Below are positions 3,365 to 30,834 of a stretch of DNA of 64,000 bases, in pieces (within the stretch, counting starts at the first letter, position 1; every line of letters begins with the position of its first letter). Position numbers and translations under genes: made by a program. The notes below the pieces were generated by a model. That model was not told the DNA's origin. It ran no database searches and saw nothing but the letters and a program-made list of their open reading frames with translations. Origin of the DNA: Shigella phage SP18; sequence record GQ981382; one strand, written 5' to 3'.

Positions 3365-4030
3365 TTATTTTAAAGTGACAAAAGATGAGTTACGAGTTTC
3401 TCGTACTAGAACAGACCCATTACGATTGATGTAATAAATCAAACTGAATAGAGTTTGGTGCGCGGTGGGATGTGGGAAAGCAGTTGGACGTTCTTTCCAA
3501 TCTGGAGTCTCGGCAATCCACTGATAAATCCACCATGGAACAGTACAGAATCCAGGGTTCTTACCAATAAGCATTAAATTCGGGCTAAAGTTTTTTGGCA
3601 AATCAAATACAGGTTTTTCAGATTCGATAACCTTAGCAACAGCAGCTTCGAACTTTTCTTCGACAAAAGGAACGTCCTCTTCGACCAAAACAACTGGTTC
3701 TTCGATTTCAACAACTTCAACCTTTGCTTCGGTTGGAGCATCAAATAAGAGCTTAGCTTCTTCTTTAGCTGACTCATCGCCATCAAATTTAGCACCTGAC
3801 AATTCGTCATCGGCATCGATAAGGTCAGTGATGCTCAGTCCCTCATTATCATCAGGCATGGGCATGTCAGCAAATGCTTTAAGCCCTGCTTCCAGGTCAG
3901 CCAACATATTATCAAAGGTTTTTGTTTTCTTAACATCAACACCAAGTGATGCTGCATATTCGGCTAATTTTTCTTTGGCTTCTTTTTTCTCGAGGACACG
4001 AATTTCCTCAATGTAGTTCTTGTCAATCAT
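3365..4030 (-). CDS. inh: Inh-like protein (inhibitor of prohead protease), acidic central region
   Basis: 221 aa; position between hoc and uvsW as in T4; acidic E/D-rich middle. Confidence 0.6.
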   Translation of the reverse strand: MIDKNYIEEIRVLEKKEAKEKLAEYAASLGVDVKKTKTFDNMLADLEAGLKAFADMPMPDDNEGLSITDLIDADDELSGAKFDGDESAKEEAKLLFDAPTEAKVEVVEIEEPVVLVEEDVPFVEEKFEAAVAKVIESEKPVFDLPKNFSPNLMLIGKNPGFCTVPWWIYQWIAETPDWKERPTAFPHPTAHQTLFSLIYYINRNGSVLVRETRNSSFVTLK

Positions 4031-4048
4031 GATGAACCTCGGTTAGTG

Positions 4049-4056
4049 TATAAATA
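4049..4056 (+). promoter_or_regulatory. late promoter TATAAATA upstream of uvsW
   Basis: Exact T4 late -10 consensus about 30 nt before the uvsW ATG. Confidence 0.6.
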
Positions 4057-4084
4057 TAGATATATTTATTACCTTGGAATCATC

Positions 4085-5584
4085 ATGGATATTAAAATCA
4101 ACTTTCTAAATTTTAGTCACGTGCATGTTGAATGTGAAGATGGAATCTTCTACGAACTCCGTGATTACTTCAGCTTCGAAGCTGAAAACTATCGCTTCAA
4201 TCCAAAGTTCAAGCAGGGAGTTTGGGACGGACGAATCCGCCTCCTGGATTACAATCGTAAATTACCATACGGTTTGGTTAATCAAATTAAAAAGTTCGCT
4301 GACCAGTTTGGTTATTCATTCTGGATTGACCCGCAAATCACCGAGAAAGAAGAAATCTCTCGCGAAGAATTCGACAAATGGGTTGAGTCAAAAGAAATCT
4401 ATTCAGGCAATACCAAGATAACGCCTCATTGGTATCAATCTGACGCCGTATATGACGGTCTGGTCAACAGAAGAAAGATTCTGAACTTACCTACGTCTGC
4501 AGGTAAAAGCCTCATCCAGGCGCTTCTGGCGCGATATTATCTCGAGAACTATGAAGGCAAGGTGCTTATCCTTGTTCCTACAACCGCGCTTGTTGACCAG
4601 ATGATTAATGACTTTGTTGATTATCGGCTTTTCCCTCGTGAAGCTTGTCTGGGTATTCGTTCCGGGACTAAACGCGATTCTGATGCGATGATTTATGTAT
4701 CGACTTATCAGACGGCTGTAAAACAACCTAAAGAATGGTTTGGCCAGTTTGGCCAGTTTATGAATGACGAATGCCACATGGCTACAGGTAAATCGATTTC
4801 GACGGTTATCGAAGGCCTTACGAATTGCATGTTTAAATTTGGTCTGTCAGGTTCACTCCGTGATGGCAAAGCCAACCTTATGCAATATATGGGTCTGTTT
4901 GGTGATATCTTTAAACCAGTATCAACATCCAAATTGATGGAAGATGGCCAGGTTACTGACCTTAAAATAAATAGTATTTTCCTTCGTTACCCTGATGAAT
5001 TCACTGTTAAAATGAAAGGTAAAACTTATCAGGATGAAATTAAGGTAATTACAAAAGCTACACGCCGAAATAAATGGGTAACAAATCTTGCTCTCAAGCT
5101 TGCTAAAAAAGATGAAAACGTCTTTTTGATGTTTAAGAATATCGAGCACGGTAAATCGATGTTTGAAATGCTTAAGGAAGCTGGTCATGAGAAAGTGTAT
5201 TATGTTTCCGGGGAAGTTGATACCGAAACCCGTAATGCTCTGAAGGTCATGGCAGAGAATGGAAAGGGAATTATTGTTGTAGCTTCATACGGTGTATTCT
5301 CAACGGGGATTTCCGTTAAAAACCTCCATCATATTATTTTCGCTCACCCGGTCAAGTCAAAGGTAATTGTACTCCAGACAATTGGTCGTGTGCTTCGAAA
5401 ACATGAATCCAAATCACAAGCAAACGTTTTTGATATCGTTGATGATATGGGTGTTAAACCTAAATCAGCAAATGCTAAAAAGAAATATGTTCATCTTAAC
5501 TTTGCCCTAAAACATGGCCTTGAACGTATACAACGATATGCTGATGAACGTTTTAACTATGTAATTAAACAGGTGGAAATTTGA
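4085..5584 (+). CDS. uvsW: UvsW DNA/RNA helicase (SF2, DExH)
   Basis: N-terminus MDIKINF...; Walker A LPTSAGKS, DExH motif MNDECH; colinear with T4 UvsW. Start placed at the first ATG downstream of the late promoter. Confidence 0.93.
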   Translation: MDIKINFLNFSHVHVECEDGIFYELRDYFSFEAENYRFNPKFKQGVWDGRIRLLDYNRKLPYGLVNQIKKFADQFGYSFWIDPQITEKEEISREEFDKWVESKEIYSGNTKITPHWYQSDAVYDGLVNRRKILNLPTSAGKSLIQALLARYYLENYEGKVLILVPTTALVDQMINDFVDYRLFPREACLGIRSGTKRDSDAMIYVSTYQTAVKQPKEWFGQFGQFMNDECHMATGKSISTVIEGLTNCMFKFGLSGSLRDGKANLMQYMGLFGDIFKPVSTSKLMEDGQVTDLKINSIFLRYPDEFTVKMKGKTYQDEIKVITKATRRNKWVTNLALKLAKKDENVFLMFKNIEHGKSMFEMLKEAGHEKVYYVSGEVDTETRNALKVMAENGKGIIVVASYGVFSTGISVKNLHHIIFAHPVKSKVIVLQTIGRVLRKHESKSQANVFDIVDDMGVKPKSANAKKKYVHLNFALKHGLERIQRYADERFNYVIKQVEI

Positions 5585-6272
5585 ATTATCAAAAAATATA
5601 TGATGATTTAATTGGGAGTCGAAAGGCTTCCAAACCGATTGGATACACGGAATCTCACCATATCATTCCAGAATGTATGGGTGGACCTGATACACAAGAA
5701 AACAGAGTCAACCTTACTCCGGAAGAACATTTCGTTGCGCATAAATTATTGGCCAAAATTCATCCTAATCATTACGGTCTTATAAAGGCCGTCATTGCTA
5801 TGGGTATGAGCTCTCGAACACATCAACGACAATTCAATAAATCGTATGGATGGGAGCGTAGACAAATGTCAGTTCTTCAAACTGGTGAAGGCAATCCTTT
5901 TTATGGTAAACACCATACTGAAGAACATAAAGAATATATGAGCCAATTATTAAAGGGTCGCAAAATAACTTGGGCTGATAAAATATCCGCGACAAAGAAA
6001 GCGAATCCGTATAAATACTCTCAAGCACAATGTCAAGCTATATCTGAAAGAAATAAAGGTGAAGGTAATTGGATGTATGGTAAATCACATACACCAGAAG
6101 CATCAAAGAAAATTTCAGATAAAGCAAAAGAACGTTATAAGGACCCATCCAAAAATCCTGCCGCTAAGAAAGTGGTTTTAAACGGGATTGAATATGGTTC
6201 GATGAAGCAAGCTTCTGTAGCAACGGGGCTTTCTTTATATAAAATCAGAAATTTAATTAAACAGGTGGAAAT
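5562..6272 (+). mobile_element. HNH homing-endonuclease cassette flanked by 19 bp direct repeats (taattaaacaggtggaaat at 5562-5580 and 6254-6272)
   Basis: The last 19 nt of uvsW, including an AGGTGG Shine-Dalgarno, are repeated exactly at the 3' end of the HNH ORF, restoring the ribosome-binding site of uvsW.1. Confidence 0.6.
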
Positions 6273-6276
6273 ATAA
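5581..6276 (+). CDS. HNH homing endonuclease (HNH plus NUMOD-like repeats), free-standing
   Basis: 231 aa; ESHHIIPECMGGPDTQENRVNLTPEEHFVAHKL HNH motif; repeated GNPFYGKHHTEEHK / NWMYGKSHTPEASKK repeats; TTG start overlapping the uvsW stop; paralog of the ORF at 28806-29531. Confidence 0.85.
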   Translation: MNYQKIYDDLIGSRKASKPIGYTESHHIIPECMGGPDTQENRVNLTPEEHFVAHKLLAKIHPNHYGLIKAVIAMGMSSRTHQRQFNKSYGWERRQMSVLQTGEGNPFYGKHHTEEHKEYMSQLLKGRKITWADKISATKKANPYKYSQAQCQAISERNKGEGNWMYGKSHTPEASKKISDKAKERYKDPSKNPAAKKVVLNGIEYGSMKQASVATGLSLYKIRNLIKQVEI

Positions 6277-6503
6277 TGAAATCCTTCGAAGAAATTATGT
6301 ACGAAGCATCAATTGAAGGCTTTATGGCTAAGATTGGCTCCTGTCAGACCATGGACGGTCTGAAGGAGTTGGAAGGCTATTATAAGAAACGCAGCAAAGA
6401 AGCTGAACTGAAAGATTCCGATGATATCAGTGTTCGTGACGCTCTTGCCGGTAAACGCGCCGAGCTTGAGGATATGGACGACGACGAAGACGAAGATTTC
6501 TAA
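6276..6503 (+). CDS. uvsW.1: UvsW.1-like small acidic protein
   Basis: 75 aa, acidic C-terminal tail DMDDDEDEDF; immediately downstream of uvsW as in T4. Confidence 0.7.
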   Translation: MKSFEEIMYEASIEGFMAKIGSCQTMDGLKELEGYYKKRSKEAELKDSDDISVRDALAGKRAELEDMDDDEDEDF

Positions 6504-12793: not shown

Positions 12794-13882
12794 ATGAAAG
12801 TAAAAGAACTCGATATTGCGGGTTTATTTAACGGAGGTTCTAAGACCTCCGCTGGGCAGTCAAAAGCTGCCCAGACTCAAGCTACTATTGTGGCGCAATA
12901 TCCAGCAGAACGAGCTTCCGGTAATGATTCTTCAGATGATATGCGAGTTAATGACCTTTATAAAAATGGTCTGTTATTCACGGCATACAATTTCAGTTCA
13001 AGAACATCTCCGGAATTACGCTCAGACAGGTCAAGCCAATTGACTTCATTAAAGAAAGTTTCCAATGGCGCTTCATTTAACCCGGTTAAAAGTTTAACAT
13101 CTTTTGCTAAATCGAAATTAACCGGCGCTGGCTCAACAGGTAAAAGTTTTGATTCAAACGCTGTTGCAAATATCCTGTTGCCTCGTTCGAAGTCTGATGT
13201 AGAATCCGTATCGCACCGATTCAACGATGTTGGTGAATCTCTTATTACGAAAGGGGGCGGCTCAGCTACAGGTATTCTTAGTAACATCGCATCGACTGCA
13301 GTTTTCGGCGCACTCGAATCAGTTACAAATGGTGTAATGGCCGACCATGGTGAACAGATTTACACAACCGCGCGAAGCATGTATGCTGGTCCTGATAACA
13401 GGACAAAAGTTTACACATGGGAAATGACTCCACGTTCGGCCCAGGACTTAATCCAGATAGTGAAGATATACGAGATTTTTAACTATTATTCCTATGGAGA
13501 AACCGGCAAAAGTTCGTTTGCTTCCGAGCTGAAAGAAAAAATCGATACATGGTATAAATCCACCTTCAAAAAAGAAGCAATCGATAACTTTGACGGCAAG
13601 TTGCTCGGTGAAGAGATAACAAGCTTCCTAACGAACGTTCTGGTGGTCTCTAACCCTACTATCTGGTATATCCGCAACTTCGGCGATACAAGCTCGTACG
13701 ATGGTCGTGGGGAGCTATTTGGGCCGTGTCAGATTCAGAGCATACGATTTGACAAATCACCGGATGGTCATTTCGGTGGATTAGCTATTGCTCCTAACCT
13801 ACCATCGACTTTTGTGCTTGAAATCACTTTCCGTGAAATCATTACGCTTAACCGTGGCTCGTTATATGCGGAGGGTTTCTAA
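12794..13882 (+). CDS. 48: baseplate tail tube cap gp48
   Basis: 362 aa; synteny 29-48-54 and T4-like size. Confidence 0.85.
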   Translation: MKVKELDIAGLFNGGSKTSAGQSKAAQTQATIVAQYPAERASGNDSSDDMRVNDLYKNGLLFTAYNFSSRTSPELRSDRSSQLTSLKKVSNGASFNPVKSLTSFAKSKLTGAGSTGKSFDSNAVANILLPRSKSDVESVSHRFNDVGESLITKGGGSATGILSNIASTAVFGALESVTNGVMADHGEQIYTTARSMYAGPDNRTKVYTWEMTPRSAQDLIQIVKIYEIFNYYSYGETGKSSFASELKEKIDTWYKSTFKKEAIDNFDGKLLGEEITSFLTNVLVVSNPTIWYIRNFGDTSSYDGRGELFGPCQIQSIRFDKSPDGHFGGLAIAPNLPSTFVLEITFREIITLNRGSLYAEGF

Positions 13883-14826
13883 TGTTTACTTTACAAGAAT
13901 TCCAAACGCAGGCGATTAATATCGACTTACAAAGGAATAACCTTTTTAGTGTGGTCTTCGCGACCGCACCTTCCTCTAAATCTCAGAATCTTCTGGACCA
14001 GTTTGGTGGCGCATTATTCAGCAACCTTCCTGTTAACTCAGATTGGTTCGGATTAACACAAGGTGACTTAACTCAAGGGATAACAACTCTTGTTACTGCC
14101 GGAACACAAAAGCTTATTCGCAAATCAGGGATAAGCAAATATCTTATTGGGGCAATGAGTAACCGTGTTGTGCAATCATTATTAGGGGAATTTGAGGTTG
14201 GTACTTACCTGCTTGATTTCTTTAATATGGCTTATCCAACGGCTGGTCTATTAGTTCACTCTGTTAAGCTTCCGGATAACACATTGAACTACGAAATGGA
14301 CCTTAACCATAATGCGCCAAATATCAAGATAACAGGGAGAGAATATTCTCCGTTGGTATTGAGCTTTAGAATGGATTCAGAGGCGGGGAACTTCAGAGCA
14401 TTTAACGATTGGGTTAACTCTGTACAGGACCCAGTTACCCAGCTAAGGGCTTTGCCTGAAGACGTTGAAGCTGATATTCAGGTTAACCTTCATTCGCGTA
14501 ATGGGTTACCACATACGGTTGTTATGTTAACCGGTTGTGTTCCTGTAAGTGTATCAGCGCCTGAATTGAGCTATGAAGGGGATAATCAGATAGCTACATT
14601 TGATGTAACTTTTGCTTATCGCGTTATGTCAACTGGTGCGGTGGGAAGAGCTGCAGCATTGGAATGGTTGGAAGATAAGGTTATTAAAGGTGTATCTGGT
14701 ATTAGTTCAGATAACAACTTGAACGCAGAAGTTGCCAAATTGAGTCGCTTGTCTGGTGCTCAATCTGGATTAACAAGTCTATACAATACGTTTACTGGTT
14801 CTGGCGGAAGTCAACGTATATTATAA
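13882..14826 (+). CDS. 54: baseplate tail tube initiator gp54
   Basis: 314 aa; start overlaps the gp48 stop; synteny. Confidence 0.85.
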   Translation: MFTLQEFQTQAINIDLQRNNLFSVVFATAPSSKSQNLLDQFGGALFSNLPVNSDWFGLTQGDLTQGITTLVTAGTQKLIRKSGISKYLIGAMSNRVVQSLLGEFEVGTYLLDFFNMAYPTAGLLVHSVKLPDNTLNYEMDLNHNAPNIKITGREYSPLVLSFRMDSEAGNFRAFNDWVNSVQDPVTQLRALPEDVEADIQVNLHSRNGLPHTVVMLTGCVPVSVSAPELSYEGDNQIATFDVTFAYRVMSTGAVGRAAALEWLEDKVIKGVSGISSDNNLNAEVAKLSRLSGAQSGLTSLYNTFTGSGGSQRIL

Positions 14827-14852
14827 AAAGAAAGGGACCGAAGGTCCCTTTT
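14827..14852. terminator. bidirectional terminator hairpin (AGGGACCGAAGGTCCCT) with T-run
   Basis: Between convergent gp54 (+) and the minus-strand early block. Confidence 0.75.
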
Positions 14853-15142
14853 TATTTGCGGAATGAAATGAAACCTGCTGCAGTCATTACAACTTCTTTC
14901 TTAGCAAAGACTGTAATTGCAATTGGTGCTTCAGATTCAAGTTGCCCAGTTACTACACCATTAAAAATATTTTCTGTTTGTTCAGAATTTACAAAGTTTT
15001 CAACAGGGCGAAGGTCAAACTTCTTATCTTCGCCAAACACGCGCCGCAGTTCATTACCCACCGCGCTGTCAAACTCTTCTGAAGCCGGGATAACATTCTC
15101 AACTACCAGTTCCTGGCCATTAAAGCGAAAAGATGATTTCAT
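14852..15142 (-). CDS. hypothetical protein (alt.-1-like position)
   Basis: 96 aa from the ATG preceded by GAGGAAA; the longer track ORF overlaps the Alt 3' end. Confidence 0.5.
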   Translation of the reverse strand: MKSSFRFNGQELVVENVIPASEEFDSAVGNELRRVFGEDKKFDLRPVENFVNSEQTENIFNGVVTGQLESEAPIAITVFAKKEVVMTAAGFISFRK

Positions 15143-15206
15143 TTTGTTTTCCTCATGTGCAATTGATATGAACATTGTATCGCACTTCCTTGTGCTTGTA
15201 AACCCC

Positions 15207-17267
15207 CTACGAAAGGAATTTAGGAGGAATAGCTTCCAAATTAATACAACTAGCAAGAATACCAAGACCTTGATTGACTTTCTTCGTTACCCCAGAGGAT
15301 GCAAACGATGCAAAGTCAACAGATTCTACTGGCTCTTCTGTTTCCTCGCCCTGATAAACGACAAGCTCACCAGTTTCCATCAACACATCACCATCATAGA
15401 TAACTGCATTTTCATCCAGTTGGTCAGTGGTCTGGATATCAGCTTCCAGCATTTTGACGTTCGCGTTTCCTTTATACGAAGCATCCGTAATTTTGGTAAT
15501 CTTAACTACAGTTCCACGTGGAAGAATAACTTCCTGCTCGGATGGGTTGCCTGACAATTCCCCAGGAACAATTACGTTAATTAAGTCTGCCCCAGAAATT
15601 TTCCAACCGACATGAATCATTGCGTTGTCCGGGTTTGCACCTGGGATATTTGGTAAAACAATTTCGTCATCAGCCTGGAAAGATGTCCCGTCGCGATAGT
15701 CCTGATGAACTGCGGCCATAGCAACGTTCGCCACCCAGCCACCAAAGATAATTGGTTTAAATGATGTTGATACATAGTTCCTAAAATAGAATAATTTCGA
15801 CTGTTTAATTTTATTAAATGTAGGAACGTTTAAATATTGACCACGCCAAAGAGTTGTATTAGGTGGCAACTTATGTCCAATTTCAAAGGCCGAATCCAAT
15901 TCCTTAATTGTTTCGACAACTCTGTCTAGATTTAGGAATTCGGTGTCTTCTTCATAATAATTACCCATCAAATAATTATTAATATCGACATAGTTGGCTC
16001 CACAATAATCTGCAATTGCTTCACGCTGGCCATAATGGAAACGGTTGTCAGTATACCCTGCTGTGAAATTAAGAGTATTTTCTGATGCTTCTTCTGCAAA
16101 GTCTTTAACTGCAACACGAATGGCGCTTGTGTATTCTTCTTCCCAGAGCGTGGCTGCATAAGTGGCTGCATCCAGGTTAGGAGGAGCATCATTCATTTTT
16201 CTTTCGATAAATGCGGCTTTGCGAAGGTTAAGAATCTCTGCACATGATTCGGCAAAAATCTGCATCTGCTTCATACTACCAACTGGAGCACGTTTAAGTT
16301 CGCGATGCATACGGTTAAAAATTGGGTCAGAGTCTTCAACACGAATTTCTTCTTTCCAAACACCATTTGCACGCATAGCCGTATCTGCTGCGCGCATACG
16401 AGCCATAGTATTCGTTTCGGAAGGTCGAACAAAAATTTCCAGTTCTTCGTAATCATCGATAAGTTCTGCCGTAGCCGGTCGACTAAACTTAGCAGCTTCT
16501 GCATCAATTTCGTCCCAACCTTCTGGCACGGAATCACTTGGAGCGTACTGGGCTTGTGCAATAGCTCGGCGACTGATTTTAGTTTTCTGGGCAACAGCAG
16601 CATCGGTCTTTTTGTTTGCTGCATCAATCAGAACTTCGGCTGCGATTTCTTGTTTGGAGACTTGTGCGCCTGTATCTTTATTAGTGAATACATCGCCGAC
16701 TTTAGTTTCAACTTTTTGATATTTCTCAGGGACCGGTGGCATACCATCAACCGAAAGCAGGTCAACACCCTTTTTGTACATAATTACATAAGCGTTCTTT
16801 TTACCGAGGCCGGAAGCATTCGGAAGAACATGATAACGCCCGCTGGTTTTCATTTGAATCAGTCGATTCATAATACGAATAACAGCTTGGTCTTGCCCTT
16901 TCATCTTTTTGGATGGGAAACGGAACAAGACTACATCAGGTTTGCCTAGTTTAATGCTTTCCCAGACTGTAACAAAAATCAGGTTAATCGCATCAAGAGG
17001 TTTTTCACCTAGACCACCCTTCAGAGGAACAGCATGGCCATGTGAAGTCCCGGATAACAGGAATACCTCGGCAATTGCATCGCCACGTTTATATTGTTTA
17101 ACTGTTTCTTTGCCCGTGAATTGCATCAAACGGGCCATAAGAGAATTGGTCCCAGGAACACCGAATTGCCAAACCTGCGGGACCTTGTATTTTGGATTCA
17201 TATTAATGACAGGATAACCGAAGGCTTCGATATATTTGTCAAAGAGTTCATTTAATTGTTCAGACAT
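15207..17267 (-). CDS. alt: Alt-like ADP-ribosyltransferase (paralog 1)
   Basis: 686 aa; C-terminal ART signature R (LWRGQ), STS (YVSTSF), ExE (SEQEVILPRG); N-terminal half alignable with the adjacent paralog. Confidence 0.85.
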   Translation of the reverse strand: MSEQLNELFDKYIEAFGYPVINMNPKYKVPQVWQFGVPGTNSLMARLMQFTGKETVKQYKRGDAIAEVFLLSGTSHGHAVPLKGGLGEKPLDAINLIFVTVWESIKLGKPDVVLFRFPSKKMKGQDQAVIRIMNRLIQMKTSGRYHVLPNASGLGKKNAYVIMYKKGVDLLSVDGMPPVPEKYQKVETKVGDVFTNKDTGAQVSKQEIAAEVLIDAANKKTDAAVAQKTKISRRAIAQAQYAPSDSVPEGWDEIDAEAAKFSRPATAELIDDYEELEIFVRPSETNTMARMRAADTAMRANGVWKEEIRVEDSDPIFNRMHRELKRAPVGSMKQMQIFAESCAEILNLRKAAFIERKMNDAPPNLDAATYAATLWEEEYTSAIRVAVKDFAEEASENTLNFTAGYTDNRFHYGQREAIADYCGANYVDINNYLMGNYYEEDTEFLNLDRVVETIKELDSAFEIGHKLPPNTTLWRGQYLNVPTFNKIKQSKLFYFRNYVSTSFKPIIFGGWVANVAMAAVHQDYRDGTSFQADDEIVLPNIPGANPDNAMIHVGWKISGADLINVIVPGELSGNPSEQEVILPRGTVVKITKITDASYKGNANVKMLEADIQTTDQLDENAVIYDGDVLMETGELVVYQGEETEEPVESVDFASFASSGVTKKVNQGLGILASCINLEAIPPKFLS

Positions 17268-17276
17268 TTTTAACCC

Positions 17277-19151
17277 TTAATTGAGAAGGTGTACAAGTTT
17301 TTCCATAGACAAATCATAAGAGATTCTGTCATATTTTTTCAAAAGCGAATTTGATTCGTCTATCTGGTCATTTTCTAAGATAGAGCATTCAACGAGAATG
17401 TATTTACCCATCGAACCCATCATGCCAGCTGTAGCACCATAGACTTTATCAATCTTAAGCATTGTTCCACGTGGAAGAATAACTTCGGTTTCAACGGACC
17501 AGTTTGCCAGGTCACCAGGAATAACTACCTTGATATTTTCTGCACCTTTGATAATCATACCAATCTTGATTGTAGGTTTCGCCGAACCAGTTGCACTTTT
17601 AATAGTTGCATCGATTGCCCCATCATCGATATCACTCGATAATGCATTTGGGTCAAGGTTCGCAGCGGTGTGGCCCATACGACCGAAAATATTTGGCGCC
17701 AGAGATGTACTCGCAAACATAGGAAGATACATCGTTTTATTTTTTATGGAATTAATTGCCATATCGGTTGGCATGACTTGAGCACGGTAGATGATAGTTC
17801 CTTTTGGAAGCTTAACACCGTTTTCAAATACTTTATCCATATCGGAAATCATTTTGATTTCGCTTTCTTTTGCGTCAGCTTTCCCTAGCAGGAAATTATT
17901 GATTGCAGTATATTTTCCGCGAGTATACGCCTTAATTGCTTCGGCCTGGTCTTCAGTTATTTCAGGGTTGTCGGAGATATGAAATAATGGTTGGATGGCC
18001 TTGGTGTAAATTTCATCTGCGATAATACGAATAGCTTCTTTAGTCTTATCTTCGCGCGCCCAGGTCCCCACAATGGAGTCGTCAAGCAACATATCAGCAA
18101 CTCTACGCAATGTATCAACAGGATTCTTTGAGGCCCGCAGGACGTTCGAAAACTCACTTATTTTGTGTTCCATGTCAACTTCTTTAAGAGCATTAAACAC
18201 ATCCATGGCTACACGAGTTTTTGTCTTATCTTCACCAACACCACCTTGTGCAACTAAATCAAAATAGTCTGCATACTCATCACCCGCACGGTCGATTACT
18301 TTTATTGAAGCTTTAGCTATCTGACTTTCTCTGGCATCATCTGCTGAATGCACTGCGCTACTGGTCGAGAGTTTTGTATAAATCTCTTTGTGCTCTGGTG
18401 AGAATTTAGCAAGGCCAGTTGGTTCGTTCCCCGAATACAATGCGTTAATAGCTGCGCGTTTAGAAAACTTGGTTTTAACAACAACTGCCTGGTCTGTACG
18501 TTTTTCTTCAACCTTTGCAATAGAGGCCGCAATAGCTTCATTCTTGGTAACAGTTTCGCCGGTGGCTTTGTCTACATAAACATCACCGACTTTCGATTCC
18601 ACTTTTGTGTACAATTCGGTATTGATGCCAGGAATTCCGGCGATAGATTCAATTGGTTTGGATTTACGATAAATCAATACGTAAGTATGTTTACCCGTGT
18701 ACTGATACATATCATCCAGAACTTTGAACTGACCGCCGGCACGGGCCATAATAAGCCGAGCAAGAACACGCTGAATAGTTCGTTCTTGTCCCTTCATTTT
18801 GCGGGTCGGGAAGCGGAACATAATTGCATCCATTTTCATCAGTTTTACTTGTTCGTAAACTACATCAAAAATGGATTTAATTGCTCCAATCGGGTTATCA
18901 CCAAGACCACCTTTAAGAATAGCTGGAGTACCGTTTGAATTTAATGACATCAAAATAACGTGTGCATACTTATCGCCAGTTTTGACCTGTTTAATAGCAT
19001 CGCCTTCGGATGCGTAAGACACCATACGAGCAATAAGATTATCATTCCCCGGGACCTGGATATTCCAAATCTGTGGAACTTTTGACTTTGAAAGGTTAAT
19101 GGCCGGGATATTAGATTCCCCTTCAAAAACCTCTGACAATAATTCGGTCAT
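17277..19151 (-). CDS. Alt-like ADP-ribosyltransferase (paralog 2)
   Basis: 624 aa; R (IIYRAQ), STS (FASTSL), ExE (ETEVILPRG); shares GGLG..PI.AI..IF..V, RFP..KMKGQ and TKVESKVGDVY..K.TG..V.K.E.IAA blocks with paralog 1. Confidence 0.85.
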   Translation of the reverse strand: MTELLSEVFEGESNIPAINLSKSKVPQIWNIQVPGNDNLIARMVSYASEGDAIKQVKTGDKYAHVILMSLNSNGTPAILKGGLGDNPIGAIKSIFDVVYEQVKLMKMDAIMFRFPTRKMKGQERTIQRVLARLIMARAGGQFKVLDDMYQYTGKHTYVLIYRKSKPIESIAGIPGINTELYTKVESKVGDVYVDKATGETVTKNEAIAASIAKVEEKRTDQAVVVKTKFSKRAAINALYSGNEPTGLAKFSPEHKEIYTKLSTSSAVHSADDARESQIAKASIKVIDRAGDEYADYFDLVAQGGVGEDKTKTRVAMDVFNALKEVDMEHKISEFSNVLRASKNPVDTLRRVADMLLDDSIVGTWAREDKTKEAIRIIADEIYTKAIQPLFHISDNPEITEDQAEAIKAYTRGKYTAINNFLLGKADAKESEIKMISDMDKVFENGVKLPKGTIIYRAQVMPTDMAINSIKNKTMYLPMFASTSLAPNIFGRMGHTAANLDPNALSSDIDDGAIDATIKSATGSAKPTIKIGMIIKGAENIKVVIPGDLANWSVETEVILPRGTMLKIDKVYGATAGMMGSMGKYILVECSILENDQIDESNSLLKKYDRISYDLSMEKLVHLLN

Positions 19152-19176
19152 ATTGTTTTCCTTATAAAATATGATG

Positions 19177-19184
19177 TATTTATA
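19177..19184 (-). promoter_or_regulatory. late promoter TATAAATA upstream of Alt paralog 2
   Basis: Minus strand reads cgTATAAATAcatcatattttataAGGAAAacaatATG; immediately downstream of the gp30 terminator. Confidence 0.6.
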
Positions 19185-19185
19185 C

Positions 19186-19208
19186 GAAAAAGGGCCGAAG
19201 CCCTTTTG
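19186..19208 (-). terminator. terminator hairpin (AAGGGCTTCGGCCCTT) plus T5 after gene 30
   Basis: GC stem, TTCG loop, T-run on the minus strand. Confidence 0.7.
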
Positions 19209-20756
19209 TTATTTTAATCCAGTCTTTGACCAGTCGCCAAATACATCTTCGAATGTGTCTGCATGGTCTTTATCGAAACGGAACCCTTTGATAATCGGCA
19301 GGAACAATGCAACCGTATTATCTTTACGAGTCTCGGAAGTCACCCAACCATTACATTCACAGTCAGCAATCATTCCAACCAATTCACCTTTACGAGCTTT
19401 AACCATCAAGGCTTCACGGTCCAGTTCGTGACGTTCATCAATCGGAATAGAAACCCATTTTTTGGTTTTCTTATCTTTCACTTGAGTTGTGTCTTTAAAA
19501 CCAGACCCACAGTTATTTGTAATCTTGCCACAAGAAGAACGAAGCACAACACCGCCAATTTTATCTGGGTCTTTATCGTGCTCGTAATATCCAATGATTT
19601 CCATTGCAATGTCAATTACTTCTTTGAACTTATACAAGTTCTTTGAGCGCTTGTTTTCCCAAATCGATGCCATATTCTTAAGGATAATACCTTCAAGACC
19701 TTCATCAACATATTTCTTATAGATAACTTTCGCTTCATCGAGATTGTTAACAACATGGTTTTCAATCAGAATCATGCGGTCGAAACCATGCAGCACCACA
19801 TTATCTGCAATCATCTTTTCCAGAACAGCAAAACGCACATCGTATTTCAACGGATTGAGAATCTTAACATCAGAATAGACTTCAATCAGCGGAACATAAT
19901 CCCAAACCTGGAATTTCATGCAAGAAGCTTCTGCTGCAGAAATAGTTCCTTTCAATGATTTGTTTGCCAGACCATTTGAAAAGGTTCTTGATTCCGCGAA
20001 TTCTGTGAATTCTTTTGCCTTACTAAGCTCAGGCATATCGTCAAAAAGGAAGCTCAAACCATCATTCTGGGGAGCTATTTTCTGTTCATGATATACTAAC
20101 TCGCCGTCAATCAAAACGCCCTCAGGATGTCTCTCACGCGCTTCACGGGTAGCTTCAATCAATTCCTTTTTAAGGAGGTCAAGCTTGAGGTATTCGTTGC
20201 CAGCTCGGGATAACAATCGAACATCATCCAACTCATCGCCACGAACTTCTGCAAAACACCGAGCGCCGTCGGCTTTCAATTGCGCAAAGGCCGGGAACTT
20301 AATGTTCTTGGCAATACCGGCTTCATCATAGGAAGAAGCGAGCATCTGCGGTTGTTCAGGAATTAAACCTTTCCAAACCTTATTTGCAATTGATACGGAT
20401 GCCCCGCATTCCAGGTCACGCATCATAACACGCCGCAGGACTTCAACATCTGCTTTTTTACCATCAGCAATATAGCCAGATAATTCCTCGATTGCAGCAT
20501 TACCTGTTAATTTACGAGAGGCTAATGTGAATTCAATAAAGTCAAGCATATCATCGATATTCAGCATACCAAAGCTTTGAGTCGTTGTCCCAGGTTTTGG
20601 CCATTTCTTAATATAGAACTGGATGCCTTTGGAATATGTCAAACGATACACACGTTTGAGGGTTTCATTGTCAGAATACGATTCCAGAATAGCTTGTTTC
20701 TCTTTAGTAGAATCGGTTGCAGCAATTTCATTTAAAATATCTAAAATCATAATCAC
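19209..20756 (-). CDS. 30: ATP-dependent DNA ligase gp30
   Basis: 515 aa; adenylation motif KADGAR; strong colinearity with T4 DNA ligase (e.g. RRVMMRDLECGASVSIANKVW). Confidence 0.93.
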   Translation of the reverse strand: MIMILDILNEIAATDSTKEKQAILESYSDNETLKRVYRLTYSKGIQFYIKKWPKPGTTTQSFGMLNIDDMLDFIEFTLASRKLTGNAAIEELSGYIADGKKADVEVLRRVMMRDLECGASVSIANKVWKGLIPEQPQMLASSYDEAGIAKNIKFPAFAQLKADGARCFAEVRGDELDDVRLLSRAGNEYLKLDLLKKELIEATREARERHPEGVLIDGELVYHEQKIAPQNDGLSFLFDDMPELSKAKEFTEFAESRTFSNGLANKSLKGTISAAEASCMKFQVWDYVPLIEVYSDVKILNPLKYDVRFAVLEKMIADNVVLHGFDRMILIENHVVNNLDEAKVIYKKYVDEGLEGIILKNMASIWENKRSKNLYKFKEVIDIAMEIIGYYEHDKDPDKIGGVVLRSSCGKITNNCGSGFKDTTQVKDKKTKKWVSIPIDERHELDREALMVKARKGELVGMIADCECNGWVTSETRKDNTVALFLPIIKGFRFDKDHADTFEDVFGDWSKTGLK

Positions 20757-23952: not shown

Positions 23953-24300
23953 TTTGATAATTGTTTTATAGGTCACTTCAGCTGTGTAGAAGTTTTTGGC
24001 TTTCATTACAATAGCTTCACCCTTTGGATTCGCCTCAATCCATTCTCTGGCACGTTTATGTGCTTCCAGTTCAGTAAGCAAACCAGAGCGTTGACAGCCA
24101 CGGTCTTGTGTACCAGCTTCACTTAAGAAAGCGACTAGATAAATTGCGTCGTCATACGGTTTAGCAGGTGGGATGTACACCGGAGGACTCGGTGGGACAT
24201 ACGCAGCAGGATGATGACCCGGAATTTCATTGTATGGACCAGGCGCGGCATAAGATGCTCCACGTGGTGTAGTAAACGTGTGATTGTATCTATCGTTCAT
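23950..24300 (-). CDS. hypothetical proline-rich protein
   Basis: 116 aa ORF; N-terminal half Pro/Tyr rich. Confidence 0.5.
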   Translation of the reverse strand: MNDRYNHTFTTPRGASYAAPGPYNEIPGHHPAAYVPPSPPVYIPPAKPYDDAIYLVAFLSEAGTQDRGCQRSGLLTELEAHKRAREWIEANPKGEAIVMKAKNFYTAEVTYKTIIK

Positions 24301-24312
24301 AATATTTTCCTA

Positions 24313-24339
24313 GAAAAAAGGGACTCCGAAGAGTCCCTG
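24313..24339 (-). terminator. terminator hairpin (AGGGACTCTTCGGAGTCCCT) plus T6
   Basis: Perfect stem-loop with T-run on the minus strand, downstream of the small basic ORF. Confidence 0.7.
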
Positions 24340-24342
24340 AAC

Positions 24343-24504
24343 TTATGCTTTCGGCTTACCAAAGCAAGCTGCATCGGCACGCAATACCGCACGAGCACGA
24401 GCCTGAAGTTTATCAGTTACCTGATTGATTCGCTTGTTGGACGCACGCTTGTAACCAGCGCGTTTGGAGGAGCCATCAACAACTTTAACTTCTTTCTTAG
24501 CCAT
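24343..24504 (-). CDS. small basic protein (~53 aa), 30.9-like position
   Basis: Hand-translated MAKKEVKVVDGSSKRAGYKRASNKRINQ...; below the track cutoff; weak Shine-Dalgarno; coordinates approximate. Confidence 0.4.
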   Translation of the reverse strand: MAKKEVKVVDGSSKRAGYKRASNKRINQVTDKLQARARAVLRADAACFGKPKA

Positions 24505-24901
24505 ATTAAATTCTCTTTAAAATAGAATGCAGGACTTATTGGCATTGCCTGCGCAAGCCCTCGAAGGGAACATTAGGTTTCGGATATTTAACGACAGGAT
24601 AACCATAAACCTCGTCATCATACCTTATAGCTCTTATCTGTTGCACACCGTTAGCTTAAAGGTTCCGGGTTCGATTTCTCGAGGATAAGATATATACTGA
24701 TGGATATATAGGCCTTGAGGCGTACTCCCGATTGGCCATCACCTCGGGGTAGCATGCACTTGCCGCTATAAGAATAACATTCAAGAGGTACACCATAAAA
24801 TTGCCGAGGTCTTAAAACTATAATGATTCGCAAATCATTAATCAGACAATTCGACGGCTCCTCGATTTTAGCTCACACTAAGGCAGTGAATCTCCAATAA
24901 A

Positions 24902-25156
24902 TTACTTCAGAGTTACGACAAAATGGCGAACAGCTTTACGGGCAGCAGATGCCAGCGGCTTAGCAAATTTCAGTTCATCTTTTGCTTCGAGCACTGCACG
25001 AAGGTCGGTTTGAATCGGGTTAAGATGTTTGAAATACTGCAGAATTTCCAGTGCTTCGGCTTCAACATCAATAGATGCGCCGTAGTTTTCGTGACCGTTA
25101 TTCCATGCAGTGCGTTGCAGTTCAAGAGCGTGTTGTAATTGTTTGTTTAAAGACAT
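24902..25156 (-). CDS. rIII: rIII lysis inhibition accessory protein
   Basis: MSLNKQLQHALELQRTAWNNGHENYGASIDVEAEALEIL... matches T4 rIII from the internal ATG (about 84 aa). Confidence 0.8.
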   Translation of the reverse strand: MSLNKQLQHALELQRTAWNNGHENYGASIDVEAEALEILQYFKHLNPIQTDLRAVLEAKDELKFAKPLASAARKAVRHFVVTLK

Positions 25157-25313
25157 TTTAGAAGCCTCAATATGAGGTGAATATTTGGTGGACACGTTCT
25201 TCTGAATTTCACTTCCTTTCGGCAAGTCTCTCAGTTGTAGTCCACCGTTTAGGATTCTCCGGTTAACTAACTGGTCCGGCAGCCAATCCATATTATTATT
25301 TATAACGCTAATT

Positions 25314-25661
25314 TTACTTATAAAGACAAGGAACAGCTTTATAATGACAGGTCACAAATTTCTGCTTAACTTCTTTAGCCTGCTTAAGTCCCAGAGCAAC
25401 CAGAGGATGTGGAACGTTTGCAATCTTGCCAACCGGAAGAGGAGTCAAATCACCCACTTCACAGAAACCTTCGGGAACATCCGGACCAACCGAAAATACT
25501 TCGCACATCTCTGGGATTTCACCCTGATGGAGTTTTCCGATAACGATACCTGATGCCGTAGTTTCTTCATCACCAGCTTGCTTTGGCTCAGAAACCAAAA
25601 TAATATATTCACCTACTGCTTTAATTGGTAATTCCATATTTAATCCATGTTGTTTGGTCAT
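25314..25661 (-). CDS. 31: co-chaperonin gp31 (GroES-like)
   Basis: [22 protein letters not shown]...[20 protein letters not shown]...[30 protein letters not shown] matches T4 gp31; start could be 25661 or 25637. Confidence 0.9.
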
Positions 25662-25692
25662 GTATTAATAATAACACGCACCGTTTGAAGCA

Positions 25693-25992
25693 TTAAAGGA
25701 CAAGCAGAGTCTCGGTCTGCAGACCATTCACGGAAATCAATTTATTGAAACAGAATGAACGCCATTCATTAAGCTTGGTATCAAATACCCGGATATAGCT
25801 AACTGGTTCTTTATTGGCTTCTGGTCCAGGGGTCTGGATTTCTTTATGCGGCAGCAGGTCCAGGTCACGAGTACAAGTCATACGGCGGATGCTACCATCT
25901 GCTTTTTCAAACAGAACTTCGTGAAAACCAACAGACAAAATAGTCTTGACTTTTTCACGGAGACGAATTGTTTCTTGTTCAGTTAAAATCAT
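25693..25992 (-). CDS. hypothetical protein (31.1-like position)
   Basis: 99 aa ORF. Confidence 0.55.
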   Translation of the reverse strand: MILTEQETIRLREKVKTILSVGFHEVLFEKADGSIRRMTCTRDLDLLPHKEIQTPGPEANKEPVSYIRVFDTKLNEWRSFCFNKLISVNGLQTETLLVL

Positions 25993-25994
25993 AA

Positions 25995-26228
25995 TTATTC
26001 CAAAACAGTTTTAATGGTTGTTGCATTACGCTCTTTTAGAGCTCTTAATAGGCTATGGCAATTTTCAAGAATAGGCACCGTTTTATAGTTCATTTCGGGG
26101 CGAACCCACTCGGATTTATAGTACGATTTCCAACGAGAGAAAAAGTACTTTTTATATTCTACTGAATAGGCTACCAGGTTTTCACCTTTTGAGTTCAGAC
26201 CTGAAAACTTAACTAGACGAAATTTCAT
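25995..26228 (-). CDS. hypothetical protein (31.2-like position)
   Basis: 77 aa ORF; its stop abuts the next gene's start. Confidence 0.5.
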   Translation of the reverse strand: MKFRLVKFSGLNSKGENLVAYSVEYKKYFFSRWKSYYKSEWVRPEMNYKTVPILENCHSLLRALKERNATTIKTVLE

Positions 26229-26809
26229 TATTCACCACAAAATTCGTTAATGTTTTCCCAGTTCAATTTGTCTAGACTACGCTTAGGCACATTGAACACC
26301 TCAATTCCCGCGTTCTTCAGGATATCATCCCAACCAGGAATATTCTTATCATACGTTTCACAGTAAACCAATTTCTTGATTCCTGATTGAGAAATTGCCT
26401 TTGCACAATCAGGGCAAGGAGAAAGCGTCACATACATAGTAGCGCCTTCAATTGACGAACCCATTCTGGCTGCGAACAGAATCGCATTAAGCTCGGCATG
26501 AATTTCGTTGTTCTTTGACCAGGCCGAATGAGCTTCGCGATGAGCTTTCGCCAATACAAAACGGTCAACCTGACTGAATCTCACGCATTCTGACTTATGA
26601 CCAGGGATGAGAACTGGTTTAGGTTTATTCAGTAACCAACCTTGCTCTTCCGCATGCTCGCAACAGTTAACCCCACCCGCAGGGGAACCATTATACCCTG
26701 TAGAAATAATGCGACCATTCTTTTCAATAACAGCTCCCACTTTCCAGGAGCAACATTTGGATTCTTGAGATACAAGGTATGCGATTTGCAGAACAGTAGT
26801 TGGTTTCAT
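26228..26809 (-). CDS. cd: dCMP deaminase
   Basis: 193 aa; zinc-binding HAE and PCxxC motifs (HAELNAILFAAR, SPCPDCAKAI); colinear with T4 Cd. Confidence 0.93.
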   Translation of the reverse strand: MKPTTVLQIAYLVSQESKCCSWKVGAVIEKNGRIISTGYNGSPAGGVNCCEHAEEQGWLLNKPKPVLIPGHKSECVRFSQVDRFVLAKAHREAHSAWSKNNEIHAELNAILFAARMGSSIEGATMYVTLSPCPDCAKAISQSGIKKLVYCETYDKNIPGWDDILKNAGIEVFNVPKRSLDKLNWENINEFCGE

Positions 26810-27145
26810 TTACATCACCACGAGATAATTGGTTTTAATAGTTTCAACACGATATAATTCATGTCGCAATTTAGTAATGCTCTTAACATGTGTTGTAATT
26901 ATACTATCACCATCGCTGAAGCGTTTTTTCTTATCGTCAAAAATCACCCCAAACATTCGCTCACCAATTTCTACAGGAGCTTCTGTGATAACAACCGCAT
27001 CATAATTACTTGGGTGAATACTTTTAAACAGAGCATCATTCGCAAGCGTTACTTTGATAAATGCAGCTGTCTCCGGGTCCAACTTACGATGGTCACCCAA
27101 ATCATTTTTAAGTGCTTCCTGAAAAATATCCATTAAATTCATCAT
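26810..27145 (-). CDS. hypothetical protein (cd.1-like position)
   Basis: 111 aa ORF. Confidence 0.5.
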   Translation of the reverse strand: MMNLMDIFQEALKNDLGDHRKLDPETAAFIKVTLANDALFKSIHPSNYDAVVITEAPVEIGERMFGVIFDDKKKRFSDGDSIITTHVKSITKLRHELYRVETIKTNYLVVM

Positions 27146-27387
27146 TGAATATACACTCGCTGCGCTTCAACCAGACCGTCAGAACCCAATTTCAGTTGGG
27201 TCAACTGATCACCACCTTTTAGAGTAATTTTCGGATTAATGACAATCATAAAACTGCGTGCAGATTCCTGAATAACTTGCAAAGTCGCAGCAGGGAATCG
27301 CTCTGATACGTGATTAATCATCGCTTGAGCAAATGCCTTCACTTTTTCGTGGAACTCTTCAACAGTAATTGGGGTTTCGCTAAGCAT
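27142..27387 (-). CDS. hypothetical protein (cd.2-like position)
   Basis: 81 aa ORF; overlapping stop/start. Confidence 0.5.
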   Translation of the reverse strand: MLSETPITVEEFHEKVKAFAQAMINHVSERFPAATLQVIQESARSFMIVINPKITLKGGDQLTQLKLGSDGLVEAQRVYIQ

Positions 27388-27929
27388 CAGATTGTCTCCT
27401 GTTTTACTTGTTTAATGATAGAAGCTTTTGTGATATCGCCTTTGATAATATAGCAATCTTCTGCAGTACCACGGTTTAACAGACGCTCTGCTTCGCCTTC
27501 CGCTCGCTCTTTTGACACATGACGAGAGTTAATCTCAATCTTGCCATTTTTAACCACAAGCAATTTCCAAACTGATGCAAGTTTCACTGGCACAGGTTCA
27601 ACTTCTGGCTTAACACCAACTTCTGCCCGGATGAAATAATCAAATTCATCAGACAATGGACCAGCAGAAACAAACATTGCTCCATGATGCCTGTTTTCTG
27701 CGCCAGATATTTTTGCCAAATCCACAAAATCATTTTCATCAATCAAACGTATCTCACAAACTTTTCTTCCACCGCTCGCGGTATCAGGTACAATTTTCAC
27801 TTCAAACGGAGTCATACCGATGTATTTGGCAATTTGGTAATTAGCTGCCCAGCCGCCGGCAATAAACTGTTTTTTGGCATTTTCAGATACGAATTTGTAA
27901 AACTTGCCTTCTTCAAAGAAATTACTCAT
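27387..27929 (-). CDS. hypothetical protein, member of the GKFY..KKQFIAG paralog family
   Basis: 180 aa; N-terminus EGKFYKFVSENAKKQFIAGGW resembles the ORFs at 40047 and 40478. Confidence 0.55.
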   Translation of the reverse strand: MSNFFEEGKFYKFVSENAKKQFIAGGWAANYQIAKYIGMTPFEVKIVPDTASGGRKVCEIRLIDENDFVDLAKISGAENRHHGAMFVSAGPLSDEFDYFIRAEVGVKPEVEPVPVKLASVWKLLVVKNGKIEINSRHVSKERAEGEAERLLNRGTAEDCYIIKGDITKASIIKQVKQETI

Positions 27930-27989
27930 TTTGTTTTCCTCATGTGTTGATGAAATTCATTATACACCATCCGTGGTGAAAGTAAACAC

Positions 27990-28268
27990 TTAAATTGCTT
28001 CGACAACTACCGTTTGTTTCTGGAAGTCCATCTTGCATGAAATAGCCAAAATGTGGTTATCAATTTTAAATGGAACAATTGCAAATGCTGCACCAGGCGT
28101 GAGTTGAACAGTGATTGCATCAACTGCATCCGGGAACATGATTTCCAGAATAGCAGACAAACGGCCATGCACTTTTAGTTCAGTCGACACGTCGACGCTT
28201 TCGTATAGATAATCAGATACAATCTGACTAAAAACTACTTTAACAATTTCAGAATATGTAGGAAACAT
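27990..28268 (-). CDS. hypothetical protein (cd.4-like position)
   Basis: 92 aa ORF. Confidence 0.5.
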   Translation of the reverse strand: MFPTYSEIVKVVFSQIVSDYLYESVDVSTELKVHGRLSAILEIMFPDAVDAITVQLTPGAAFAIVPFKIDNHILAISCKMDFQKQTVVVEAI

Positions 28269-28314
28269 TTCTTTTCTCGCTTAGTTATTAGGGTATCCAA
28301 AGGACCTAGACCCC

Positions 28315-28340
28315 ATTATAACATAAAATTTTTAAAGCGT
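28315..28340 (-). promoter_or_regulatory. middle-promoter-like site (CGCTTTA box, 12 bp, TATAAT followed by GGGGTCTAGGTCC)
   Basis: Third copy of the TATAATgg.tctag.cc module seen at rnlB and uvsY; the MotA box is imperfect. Confidence 0.35.
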
Positions 28341-28555
28341 TAATGGACGGTATGCACCTTGACATTAACGATAAATCGGTCAATGACTTCAGTCAGCGGA
28401 ACGAATTCAACATAATATTCGCCCTTGTATCGTTCGTTGATATCATTGCGCAGTGCAGCCAGGTTGTTGATAAGAGCAGGAGACATATTCTGCCCTACCA
28501 GTTTCTGAAGCTCTTTATAAGCTTCTTCTTCAACTTCATGGTGTTTGTTATACAT
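28340..28555 (-). CDS. hypothetical protein
   Basis: About 71 aa from the internal ATG; the longer track ORF overlaps the upstream gene. Confidence 0.45.
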   Translation of the reverse strand: MYNKHHEVEEEAYKELQKLVGQNMSPALINNLAALRNDINERYKGEYYVEFVPLTEVIDRFIVNVKVHTVH

Positions 28556-28757
28556 AATGTTCTTCCAAGAAGGCCAAGAGTTCTGGAGCGGATTTAAAGA
28601 TACCGCCATCGACCTTGTCTTCATCTTTATAGTCCATTACATCCAGACCAATACGTCCATCTGTTAAAGGCCATACGCCGAAGAAAAAGCATTTACGTTT
28701 TTCAATTTCTTCGATTGTACGAAAAATCTTTTCGATATTATTCATAGGGTTCCACAT
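28548..28757 (-). CDS. hypothetical protein
   Basis: About 69 aa from the internal ATG (MWNPMNNIEK...). Confidence 0.45.
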   Translation of the reverse strand: MWNPMNNIEKIFRTIEEIEKRKCFFFGVWPLTDGRIGLDVMDYKDEDKVDGGIFKSAPELLAFLEEHYV

Positions 28758-28771
28758 CTCCACTACTTGAG

Positions 28772-28779
28772 TATAAATA
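28772..28779 (+). promoter_or_regulatory. late promoter TATAAATA upstream of the second HNH endonuclease gene
   Basis: gagTATAAATAtagtatatcaccaAAGAGGAcatacaATG; exact late consensus and Shine-Dalgarno. Confidence 0.6.
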
Positions 28780-28805
28780 TAGTATATCACCAAAGAGGAC
28801 ATACA

Positions 28806-30667
<1,862 letters not shown>

Positions 30668-30701
30668 AATAATTTCCTCAAATTTTATAATCCGTGGGAG
30701 C

Positions 30702-30730
30702 ATTATACTCTGCTCCCATAAGTTTGTACA
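30702..30730 (-). promoter_or_regulatory. early sigma70-type promoter (TGTACA, 17 bp, TATAAT); the -10 sits in the loop of a GGGAGC/GCTCCC hairpin
   Basis: Minus strand reads gtGTACAAacttatgggagcagagTATAATgctccc. Confidence 0.55.
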
Positions 30731-30834
30731 CTACTTTCCAAAAATACCATTTATACACATGCTAAGCACGATTCCAAAACAAAAGCATGTAAAGCCAAAC
30801 AGAATGACATCCGACCCATCGATACAAGACTCAA

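Follow-up and report, generated by a model that had tools for sequence, protein, structure and literature searches.

Two deeply diverged Alt-like ADP-ribosyltransferase genes in tandem in a predicted late operon of Shigella phage SP18

Introduction

Shigella phage SP18 (GQ981382) carries, between its DNA ligase gene and a group of baseplate genes, two adjacent genes for proteins of the Alt family of ADP-ribosyltransferases (ARTs). They lie in the 64,000-nt stretch of the phage DNA that was analysed here, referred to as the window, and all coordinates not otherwise marked are window positions. The 686-aa open reading frame (ORF) is called altA and the 624-aa ORF altB. The Alt protein of phage T4 is an injected NAD+:arginine mono-ADP-ribosyltransferase whose targets include Arg265 of the RNA polymerase alpha subunit and other host proteins. 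Although Alt is a textbook example of an injected enzyme that reprograms the host, the T4 protein is, to our knowledge, the only one to have been studied.

Tandem alt genes have been described before. A full-length alt duplicate is present in phage 44RR, and alt.-1 and alt.-2 of T4 look like partial alt paralogs (Nolan et al. 2006, PMC1524935). Duplications also occur in Ac42, JS98 and Bp7, and ZZ1 has three alt-like genes (Jin et al. 2014, PMC4177764). The SP18 genes are themselves already annotated: altB is identical to ADO19552.1 and altA to ADO19551.1, adjacent products of the 170,605-bp SP18 genome named "RNA polymerase ADP-ribosylase" or "Alt-like RNA polymerase ADP-ribosyltransferase". 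The novelty implied by an earlier note on this DNA, which was made from its sequence without database searches, therefore does not hold: the genes, their annotation and the tandem arrangement of alt copies, which is also annotated in JS98 and WG01, are all public. Our aim is to describe how the two SP18 proteins differ from each other and from T4 Alt, and what this may mean for their function.

Results

Two adjacent Alt proteins with intact catalytic residues

The two ORFs are adjacent on the minus strand, with exactly the boundaries and lengths given in the earlier note (Table 1). Their products are 32% identical over ~640 residues (E 3e-86), and this identity is unevenly distributed: it is highest in the N-domain (43%), lower in the ART domain (32%), and lowest in the middle region (18%) and the C-terminal tail (12%). 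Both exceed the curated cut-off (23.4 bits) of the Pfam family PF03496 (ADPrib_exo_Tox), with 71.9 bits for altA and 56.8 bits for altB, and both match the full-length Alt profile phrog_802 over nearly their entire length (altA residues 1-685 of 686, E 5e-225; altB residues 1-603 of 624, E 2e-199). The pair PF03496 and PF26846 is also the precomputed domain assignment of an identical protein (P0001) and of all homologs among the matches listed. Neither altA nor altB was matched by NCBIfam.

All six ART motifs quoted in the earlier note are present: LWRGQ (473-477), YVSTSF (498-503) and SEQEVILPRG (576-585) in altA, and IIYRAQ (453-458), FASTSL (479-484) and ETEVILPRG (554-562) in altB. The catalytic residues are R475, S500-T-S502 and E577-Q-E579 in altA and R456, S481-T-S483 and E554-T-E556 in altB. 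The note had proposed an alignment against T4 Alt and the Alts of related phages. Both copies do align, and the arginine, the S-x-S serines and both E-x-E glutamates are invariant among the nine sequences compared (altA, altB, T4 Alt, VR7 Alt, two JS98 copies and three WG01 copies). In an alignment of 58 Alt homologs, the first serine of S-T-S and both glutamates of E-x-E occur in every sequence and the arginine in 57; the lone exception is RB69, in a badly aligned stretch. E-x-E in place of Q-x-E is a mark of arginine-specific enzymes, as in the comparison of C3 with the iota and VIP2 toxins.

Structural comparisons point in the same direction. A single-sequence search of the PDB returned no solved Alt structure and only marginal ART matches; a search with the family profile retrieved the C3-like, BECa, Vis, VIP2, Certhrax and CDTa ARTs (including 4xsg, 5h03, 4xzj and 1qs2). 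A full-length AlphaFold2 model was made for altB only (mean predicted local distance difference test score, pLDDT, 80.5; predicted template modelling score, pTM, 0.70). With Foldseek its C-terminal domain matches Vis, CDTa, C3bot, iota Ia and VIP2 at a probability of 1.0 (4xzj, 1gzf, 1giq, 1qs2 and 2wn7; E 1e-6 to 1e-5), with TM scores of ~0.6 against single-domain targets. By family, residues and, for altB, fold, altA and altB are thus predicted R-S-E ADP-ribosyltransferases of the Alt family with intact catalytic residues, as the earlier note had proposed for both copies.

Comparison of altB with its ortholog in phage DCP80 gives a synonymous divergence (dS) of 0.32 and a nonsynonymous divergence (dN) of 0.0055 (dN/dS 0.017), and the ART domain alone contains 34 synonymous and no nonsynonymous differences. 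altB is under strong purifying selection. For altA compared with VR7, dN/dS is 0.12.

Gene order and transcription signals

Reading along the minus strand, the ligase stop codon is followed by a GC-rich hairpin, AAAAGGGCTTCGGCCCTTTT, then by an exact copy of the T4-type late promoter consensus, TATAAATA, and, 13 nt further, by the AAGGA of a putative Shine-Dalgarno (SD) sequence and the altB ATG at 19151 (Table 1). The earlier note had ascribed an exact late promoter to the upstream copy, and the end it gave for the locus, 19184, is the 5' end of this octamer. The window contains 13 copies of TATAAATA, compared with 5.0 +/- 2.2 expected by chance. The copy at altB is the sole exact one between 8.6 and 25.3 kb, and there is no exact copy within 15207-19176.

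Because altA begins 9 nt after the end of altB, with its own SD sequence and with no promoter in between, the two genes would form a single late transcription unit. The hairpin AAAAGGGCTTCGGCCCTTTT looks like a terminator dividing gene 30 from this operon. At the other end, transcription probably continues through the alt.-3 homolog to the terminator-like hairpin that separates it from the convergent gene 54, and alt.-3, which is annotated under that name in VR7, JS98 and T4, may be the final gene of the unit. A sigma-70-like match (TTTACA, 17 nt, TACAAT; 10 of 12 positions) is found on the minus strand at 15174-15202, between the altA stop and the alt.-3 start; going by this consensus match, alt.-3 may also have a promoter of its own.

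Table 1. Features of the alt locus of phage SP18 (window coordinates)
Feature	Position	Strand	Remarks
Genes 48 and 54	12794-14826	+	baseplate genes on the other side of the alt operon
Terminator-like hairpin	14831..14851	-	between convergent alt.-3 (-) and gene 54 (+)
alt.-3 homolog	14852..15142	-	96 aa; downstream of altA; phrog_1739, E 9e-42
altA	15207..17267	-	686 aa; long-tail Alt; ortholog of the single alt of VR7-type phages
altA ART domain	~15450-16031	-
altA N-domain	~16554-17267	-
altA catalytic codons	R475 15843-15845; S500 15768-15770; E577 15537-15539; E579 15531-15533	-
altB-altA spacer	17268..17276	-	9 nt, altB stop to altA start; no promoter
altA putative SD, TAAGGG	17274-17279	-	overlaps the altB stop codon
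altB	17277..19151	-	624 aa; short-tail Alt paralog; first gene of the operon
altB ART domain	~17385-17963	-
altB N-domain	~18444-19151	-
altB catalytic codons	R456 17784-17786; S481 17709-17711; E554 17490-17492; E556 17484-17486	-
altB putative SD, AAGGA	19159-19163	-
Late promoter consensus (T4-type), TATAAATA	19177..19184	-	25 nt upstream of the altB ATG
GC-rich hairpin, AAAAGGGCTTCGGCCCTTTT	19188..19207	-	directly 3' of the DNA ligase stop codon
DNA ligase (gene 30)	19209-20756	-	flanks the alt operon

The position of the alt locus between gene 30 and genes 54/48 is the same in T4, VR7, JS98 and WG01, and in all four phages a hairpin followed by a promoter lies upstream of the first alt gene. 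The octamer at that promoter position is TATAAATA in VR7 and T4 and CATAAATA in JS98 and WG01. The later alt copies of JS98 and WG01 are spaced by 0-9 nt, like altB and altA.

No further Alt-like copy or relic was found in the window, where altA and altB alone match Alt proteins, and neither tRNA genes nor Rfam families were found there. Antisense ORFs inside the alt genes (for example 16305-16949, +, 214 aa, and 14856-15554, +, 232 aa) were taken to be by-products of long coding regions.

The N-domain and the processing motifs

Of all regions of altB, the N-domain of ~240 aa is the one that other Alts share most closely (42-71% identity; 43-47% for altA and T4 Alt). Modelled alone, it gives a pLDDT of 86 and a pTM of 0.85. 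T4 Alt is a protein of the prohead core, with ~40 copies per head (PMC9026906), and is cleaved by the prohead protease gp21 at ITE-6 and LTE-619; the second cut, which came to light in mass spectrometric work of 2017, takes off the last 63 residues (PMC5694885, PMC9026906). In the alignment these sites correspond to LNE-7 and LDE-619 of altA and to LSE-7 and IDE-599 of altB, which are predicted cleavage sites. In the altB model the pLDDT is low exactly at residues 1-9 and 596-612.

The segments beyond the second site differ. The altA tail (67 aa after LDE-619) is 58% identical to that of T4 Alt, whereas the altB tail is only 25 aa long after IDE-599 and, with 8-12% identity to the T4 Alt and altA tails, is unrelated to them. 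The first alt copy of WG01 has a short tail like that of altB, together with an ITE site. Both SP18 proteins thus appear to bear the known marks of a packaged and processed Alt, except that altB has no counterpart of the conserved C-terminal propeptide.

There is one virion observation on the altB side of the family: mass spectrometry of Morganella phage MP1 virions detected an Alt homolog, gp205, annotated as "RNA polymerase ADP-ribosylase" (PMC5384007). This homolog is most similar to the Alt of Proteus phage Pm5461, which groups in the altB-side clade described below. A literature search for virion proteomics on a second Alt paralog found none.

altB is an accessory gene from a different Alt lineage

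Close relatives of the locus belong to phages classed as Gaprivervirus, Tevenvirinae. Identity at the locus is 99.3% for Escherichia phage 212 and 97-98% for P896 and PSD2001, phages in which the altB ortholog is labelled only "hypothetical protein". Of 97 related phage records, only 3 span the locus completely. VR7, the type phage of Gaprivervirus, has a single alt. It aligns to the window over 15000-17267 (93.9%) and then again from 19158 to 19400, so that the piece which SP18 has in addition, 17268-19157, is exactly altB with the spacer. At 90% identity the altB cluster has 15 members versus 91 for altA. altB is therefore an accessory gene, absent from VR7 and from most other Gaprivervirus phages.

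Outside Gaprivervirus, altB comes closest to the first alt copies in WG01-type Dhakavirus phages (63% identity), which occupy the same first position; after these, altB matches many Alts at 40-43% identity. Annotated alt copies number three in tandem in WG01 (631, 693 and 707 aa), two in JS98 (695 and 708 aa) and one in T4. A neighbour-joining tree (27 sequences, 653 columns, Kimura distances, 100 bootstraps, midpoint root) groups altB with WG01 copy 1 at 100% bootstrap, within a clade (96-99%) that also contains JS98 copy 2, WG01 copy 3, the Proteus phage Alts and PspYZU05. altA groups with VR7 Alt (100%) on a long separate branch, and T4 Alt falls in a 98% clade with JS98 copy 1, WG01 copy 2, both Bp7 copies and RB69. 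A recent duplication giving rise to altA and altB was rejected in view of their 32% identity and their placement in different, well-supported clades. The tree indicates instead that altA and altB are a pairing of two old Alt lineages, like those in the JS98 and WG01 arrays.

Synonymous divergence varies along the region (15207-20756). Between SP18 and DCP80, against the altB value given above, it is 0.17 for ligase and 0.06 for the N-terminal part of altA; between SP18 and VR7 it is 0.64 for ligase and 0.21 for altA. Such a mosaic suggests that the alt locus and its surroundings recombine often.

Two of the relatives' records show irregularities. DCP80 (PQ671644.1, 140,978 bp) has altB and an altA interrupted by Ns, in an assembly that is truncated; at 3965-4390 of that record rIIA is placed beside a fragment of altA in which a stretch of residues is undetermined. 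The "truncated second alt" of DCP80 is most likely an assembly artefact. In phage 212 (PQ765507.1), product names at ~24269-31185 look displaced by one gene: the label "dihydrofolate reductase" stands on a coding sequence of 861 nt, "thymidylate synthase" on one of 2256 nt and "ribonucleotide-diphosphate reductase subunit beta" on one of 411 nt. The displacement is judged from the sizes of the T4 genes.

A clade-dependent residue in the ART domain

One position near the active site separates the altB-side clade from the other Alts. Three residues ahead of the E-x-E motif (altB 17484-17501; altA 15531-15548), every member of that clade has an aromatic side chain: W in altB and in the first WG01 copy, Y in PspYZU05, JS98 copy 2 and WG01 copy 3, and F in the Proteus phage Alts. 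In altA, T4 Alt and all other Alts sampled, the position is taken by N, P, H, I or M. We take this position to be that of the aromatic residue of turn 1 in the ADP-ribosylating turn-turn (ARTT) loop of the C3 and iota toxins, which is implicated in substrate recognition. Because this ARTT-loop residue differs and the middle regions have diverged as far as they have, it is plausible that altB has a different target or substrate spectrum, as the earlier note had suggested for a second intact paralog. No paper reporting a biochemical test of a second Alt paralog was found in the searchable literature.

Discussion

A proposed role for the two Alt proteins

We consider it likely that this locus is a late operon of a Gaprivervirus encoding two deeply diverged, arginine-specific mono-ADP-ribosyltransferases of the Alt type, which would be packaged and injected. 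The operon would run from the terminator hairpin through TATAAATA, altB and altA to alt.-3. By analogy with T4 Alt, altA and altB would be made late and built into the prohead core, where the prohead protease would trim both ends of each, at LNE-7 and LDE-619 in altA and at LSE-7 and IDE-599 in altB. The trimmed proteins would stay in the mature head and enter the host with the DNA. In the new host, NAD+-dependent ADP-ribosylation of arginines in RNA polymerase alpha and other host proteins would then take place before phage gene expression. altA would represent the resident alt of the genus and altB an accessory cassette, set precisely between the promoter and altA, which, coming from another Alt clade, probably widens or changes the set of modified host proteins.

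Several points weigh against this reading. For altA and altB, everything from packaging and cleavage to injection, enzymatic activity and targets is proposed by analogy only, and the promoter upstream of altB is a match to a consensus and nothing else. altB lacks the conserved ~63-aa tail of T4 Alt and altA, and could be handled differently during assembly. As to its origin, the midpoint-rooted tree of 27 sequences and the mosaic dS fit either a gain or a loss of altB within Gaprivervirus.

An alternative is that altB is functionally redundant and does no more than increase the amount of Alt activity that is injected, its targets being the same as those of altA, chiefly RNA polymerase alpha. 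The two proteins do share their domain order, their catalytic residues and the E-x-E motif, which implies a common arginine specificity, and they appear to be co-transcribed from a single promoter. Moreover, according to the passage of PMC5512222 that cites Depping 2005, T4 Alt by itself modifies many host proteins. We nevertheless judge this explanation unlikely. The ART domains and, still more, the middle regions are too dissimilar, the ARTT-loop position is clade-dependent, both lineages have been retained side by side in JS98 and WG01 as well, and altB is under strong purifying selection; the long-term retention of diverged paralogs fits pure dosage poorly. At the other extreme, the T4-like alt locus might be a hot-swappable array of injected effectors in which the altB clade, marked by its aromatic ARTT residue, unrelated middle region and truncated C-terminal propeptide, is a functionally distinct ART with a main target other than RNA polymerase alpha. 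This bolder idea is tentative, and we would not favour it as it stands. If it were true, altB might, for example, inactivate a toxin or defence protein of the host upon entry, as T4 Alt is reported to do with MazF, and its patchy presence within one genus would be a result of host-specific selection.

Packaging itself might be questioned for altB, which could act late in the producing cell or be an inactive or structural derivative, as it has no counterpart of the long conserved C-terminal tail that T4 Alt sheds on maturation (PMC5694885). This seems improbable to us given that the first seven residues, including L-x-E, and the whole N-domain are conserved, that I-x-E is present where T4 has LTE-619, that the catalytic residues are all intact in an ART domain without a single amino acid change over a dS of 0.32, and that the late promoter and the place beside the baseplate genes are as for T4 alt. 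That each paralog might be bifunctional, the conserved N-domain being a second enzyme, a GNAT-like acyltransferase for which there is a weak signal, and not just a module for packaging or ejection, is a further suggestion to which we also assign little probability.

Tandem alt genes being known and these two already annotated, the locus is an ordinary case of the Alt family and adds no new kind of system. It does offer a modest experimental lead, the search for paralog-specific Alt targets. Arrays of two or three diverged, intact Alts could reveal how substrate choice is encoded, in the ARTT loop or the middle region, and could show the roles of the two propeptides, as altB keeps the cleavage sites with a different and much shorter tail.

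Comparison with known systems

With the C3-like and binary toxins (C3bot, iota Ia, CDTa, VIP2, Vis, Certhrax) the SP18 proteins share the ART fold, the aromatic-R, S-T-S and E/Q-x-E elements and, in the altB clade, the aromatic side chain three residues ahead of E-x-E. The toxins differ in that bacteria secrete them, that their delivery domains are of other kinds and that their targets are eukaryotic; identity is 13-19%. T4 ModA and ModB, phage R-S-E ARTs belonging to the same broad clade, are likewise tandem paralogs, with distinct activities (PMC5512222, PMC9503650). They differ in being small, early, unpackaged proteins without the Alt N-domain. No ModA/ModB-type genes were seen in the window, in which the two alt copies are the only matches to Alt proteins.

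T4 Alt (gpAlt, 682 aa) has the same domain order as both SP18 proteins (N-domain, variable middle region, C-terminal R-S-ExE ART domain), the same locus between genes 30 and 54 with a hairpin and TATAAATA upstream, and (L/I)-x-E at the gp21 cut positions; its C-terminal tail is shared with altA alone. Overall identity is low (36% for altA, ~33% for altB) and neither belongs to the T4 Alt clade. altB differs further in its short, unrelated tail and its aromatic ARTT residue. The earlier note gave T4 a single alt gene, which is correct as regards intact copies but leaves out a decayed second one. T4 alt.-1 (61 aa) is 58% identical to Alt residues 1-62 (E 2e-21) and alt.-2 (67 aa) 62% identical to residues 63-117 (E 2e-20). 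Lying directly downstream of alt (6056-6441 of the T4 locus record), the two together are a frameshifted relic of a second copy, so that two intact genes in SP18 correspond to one gene and a relic in T4.

The nearest parallels are the Dhakavirus arrays (alta and altb of JS98/JS10, the three copies of WG01/QL01/MX01, and alt and alt' of Bp7), in which several full-length, catalytically intact alt genes likewise follow one another in the same direction downstream of a single late-type promoter. WG01 copy 1 resembles altB in particular, in sequence, first position, short tail and ARTT-loop W. The arrays differ in their composition. In SP18 a short copy of the altB-side clade (clade II) precedes a genus-specific long copy; in JS98 a copy of the T4 clade precedes a long clade-II copy, and WG01 has all three types.

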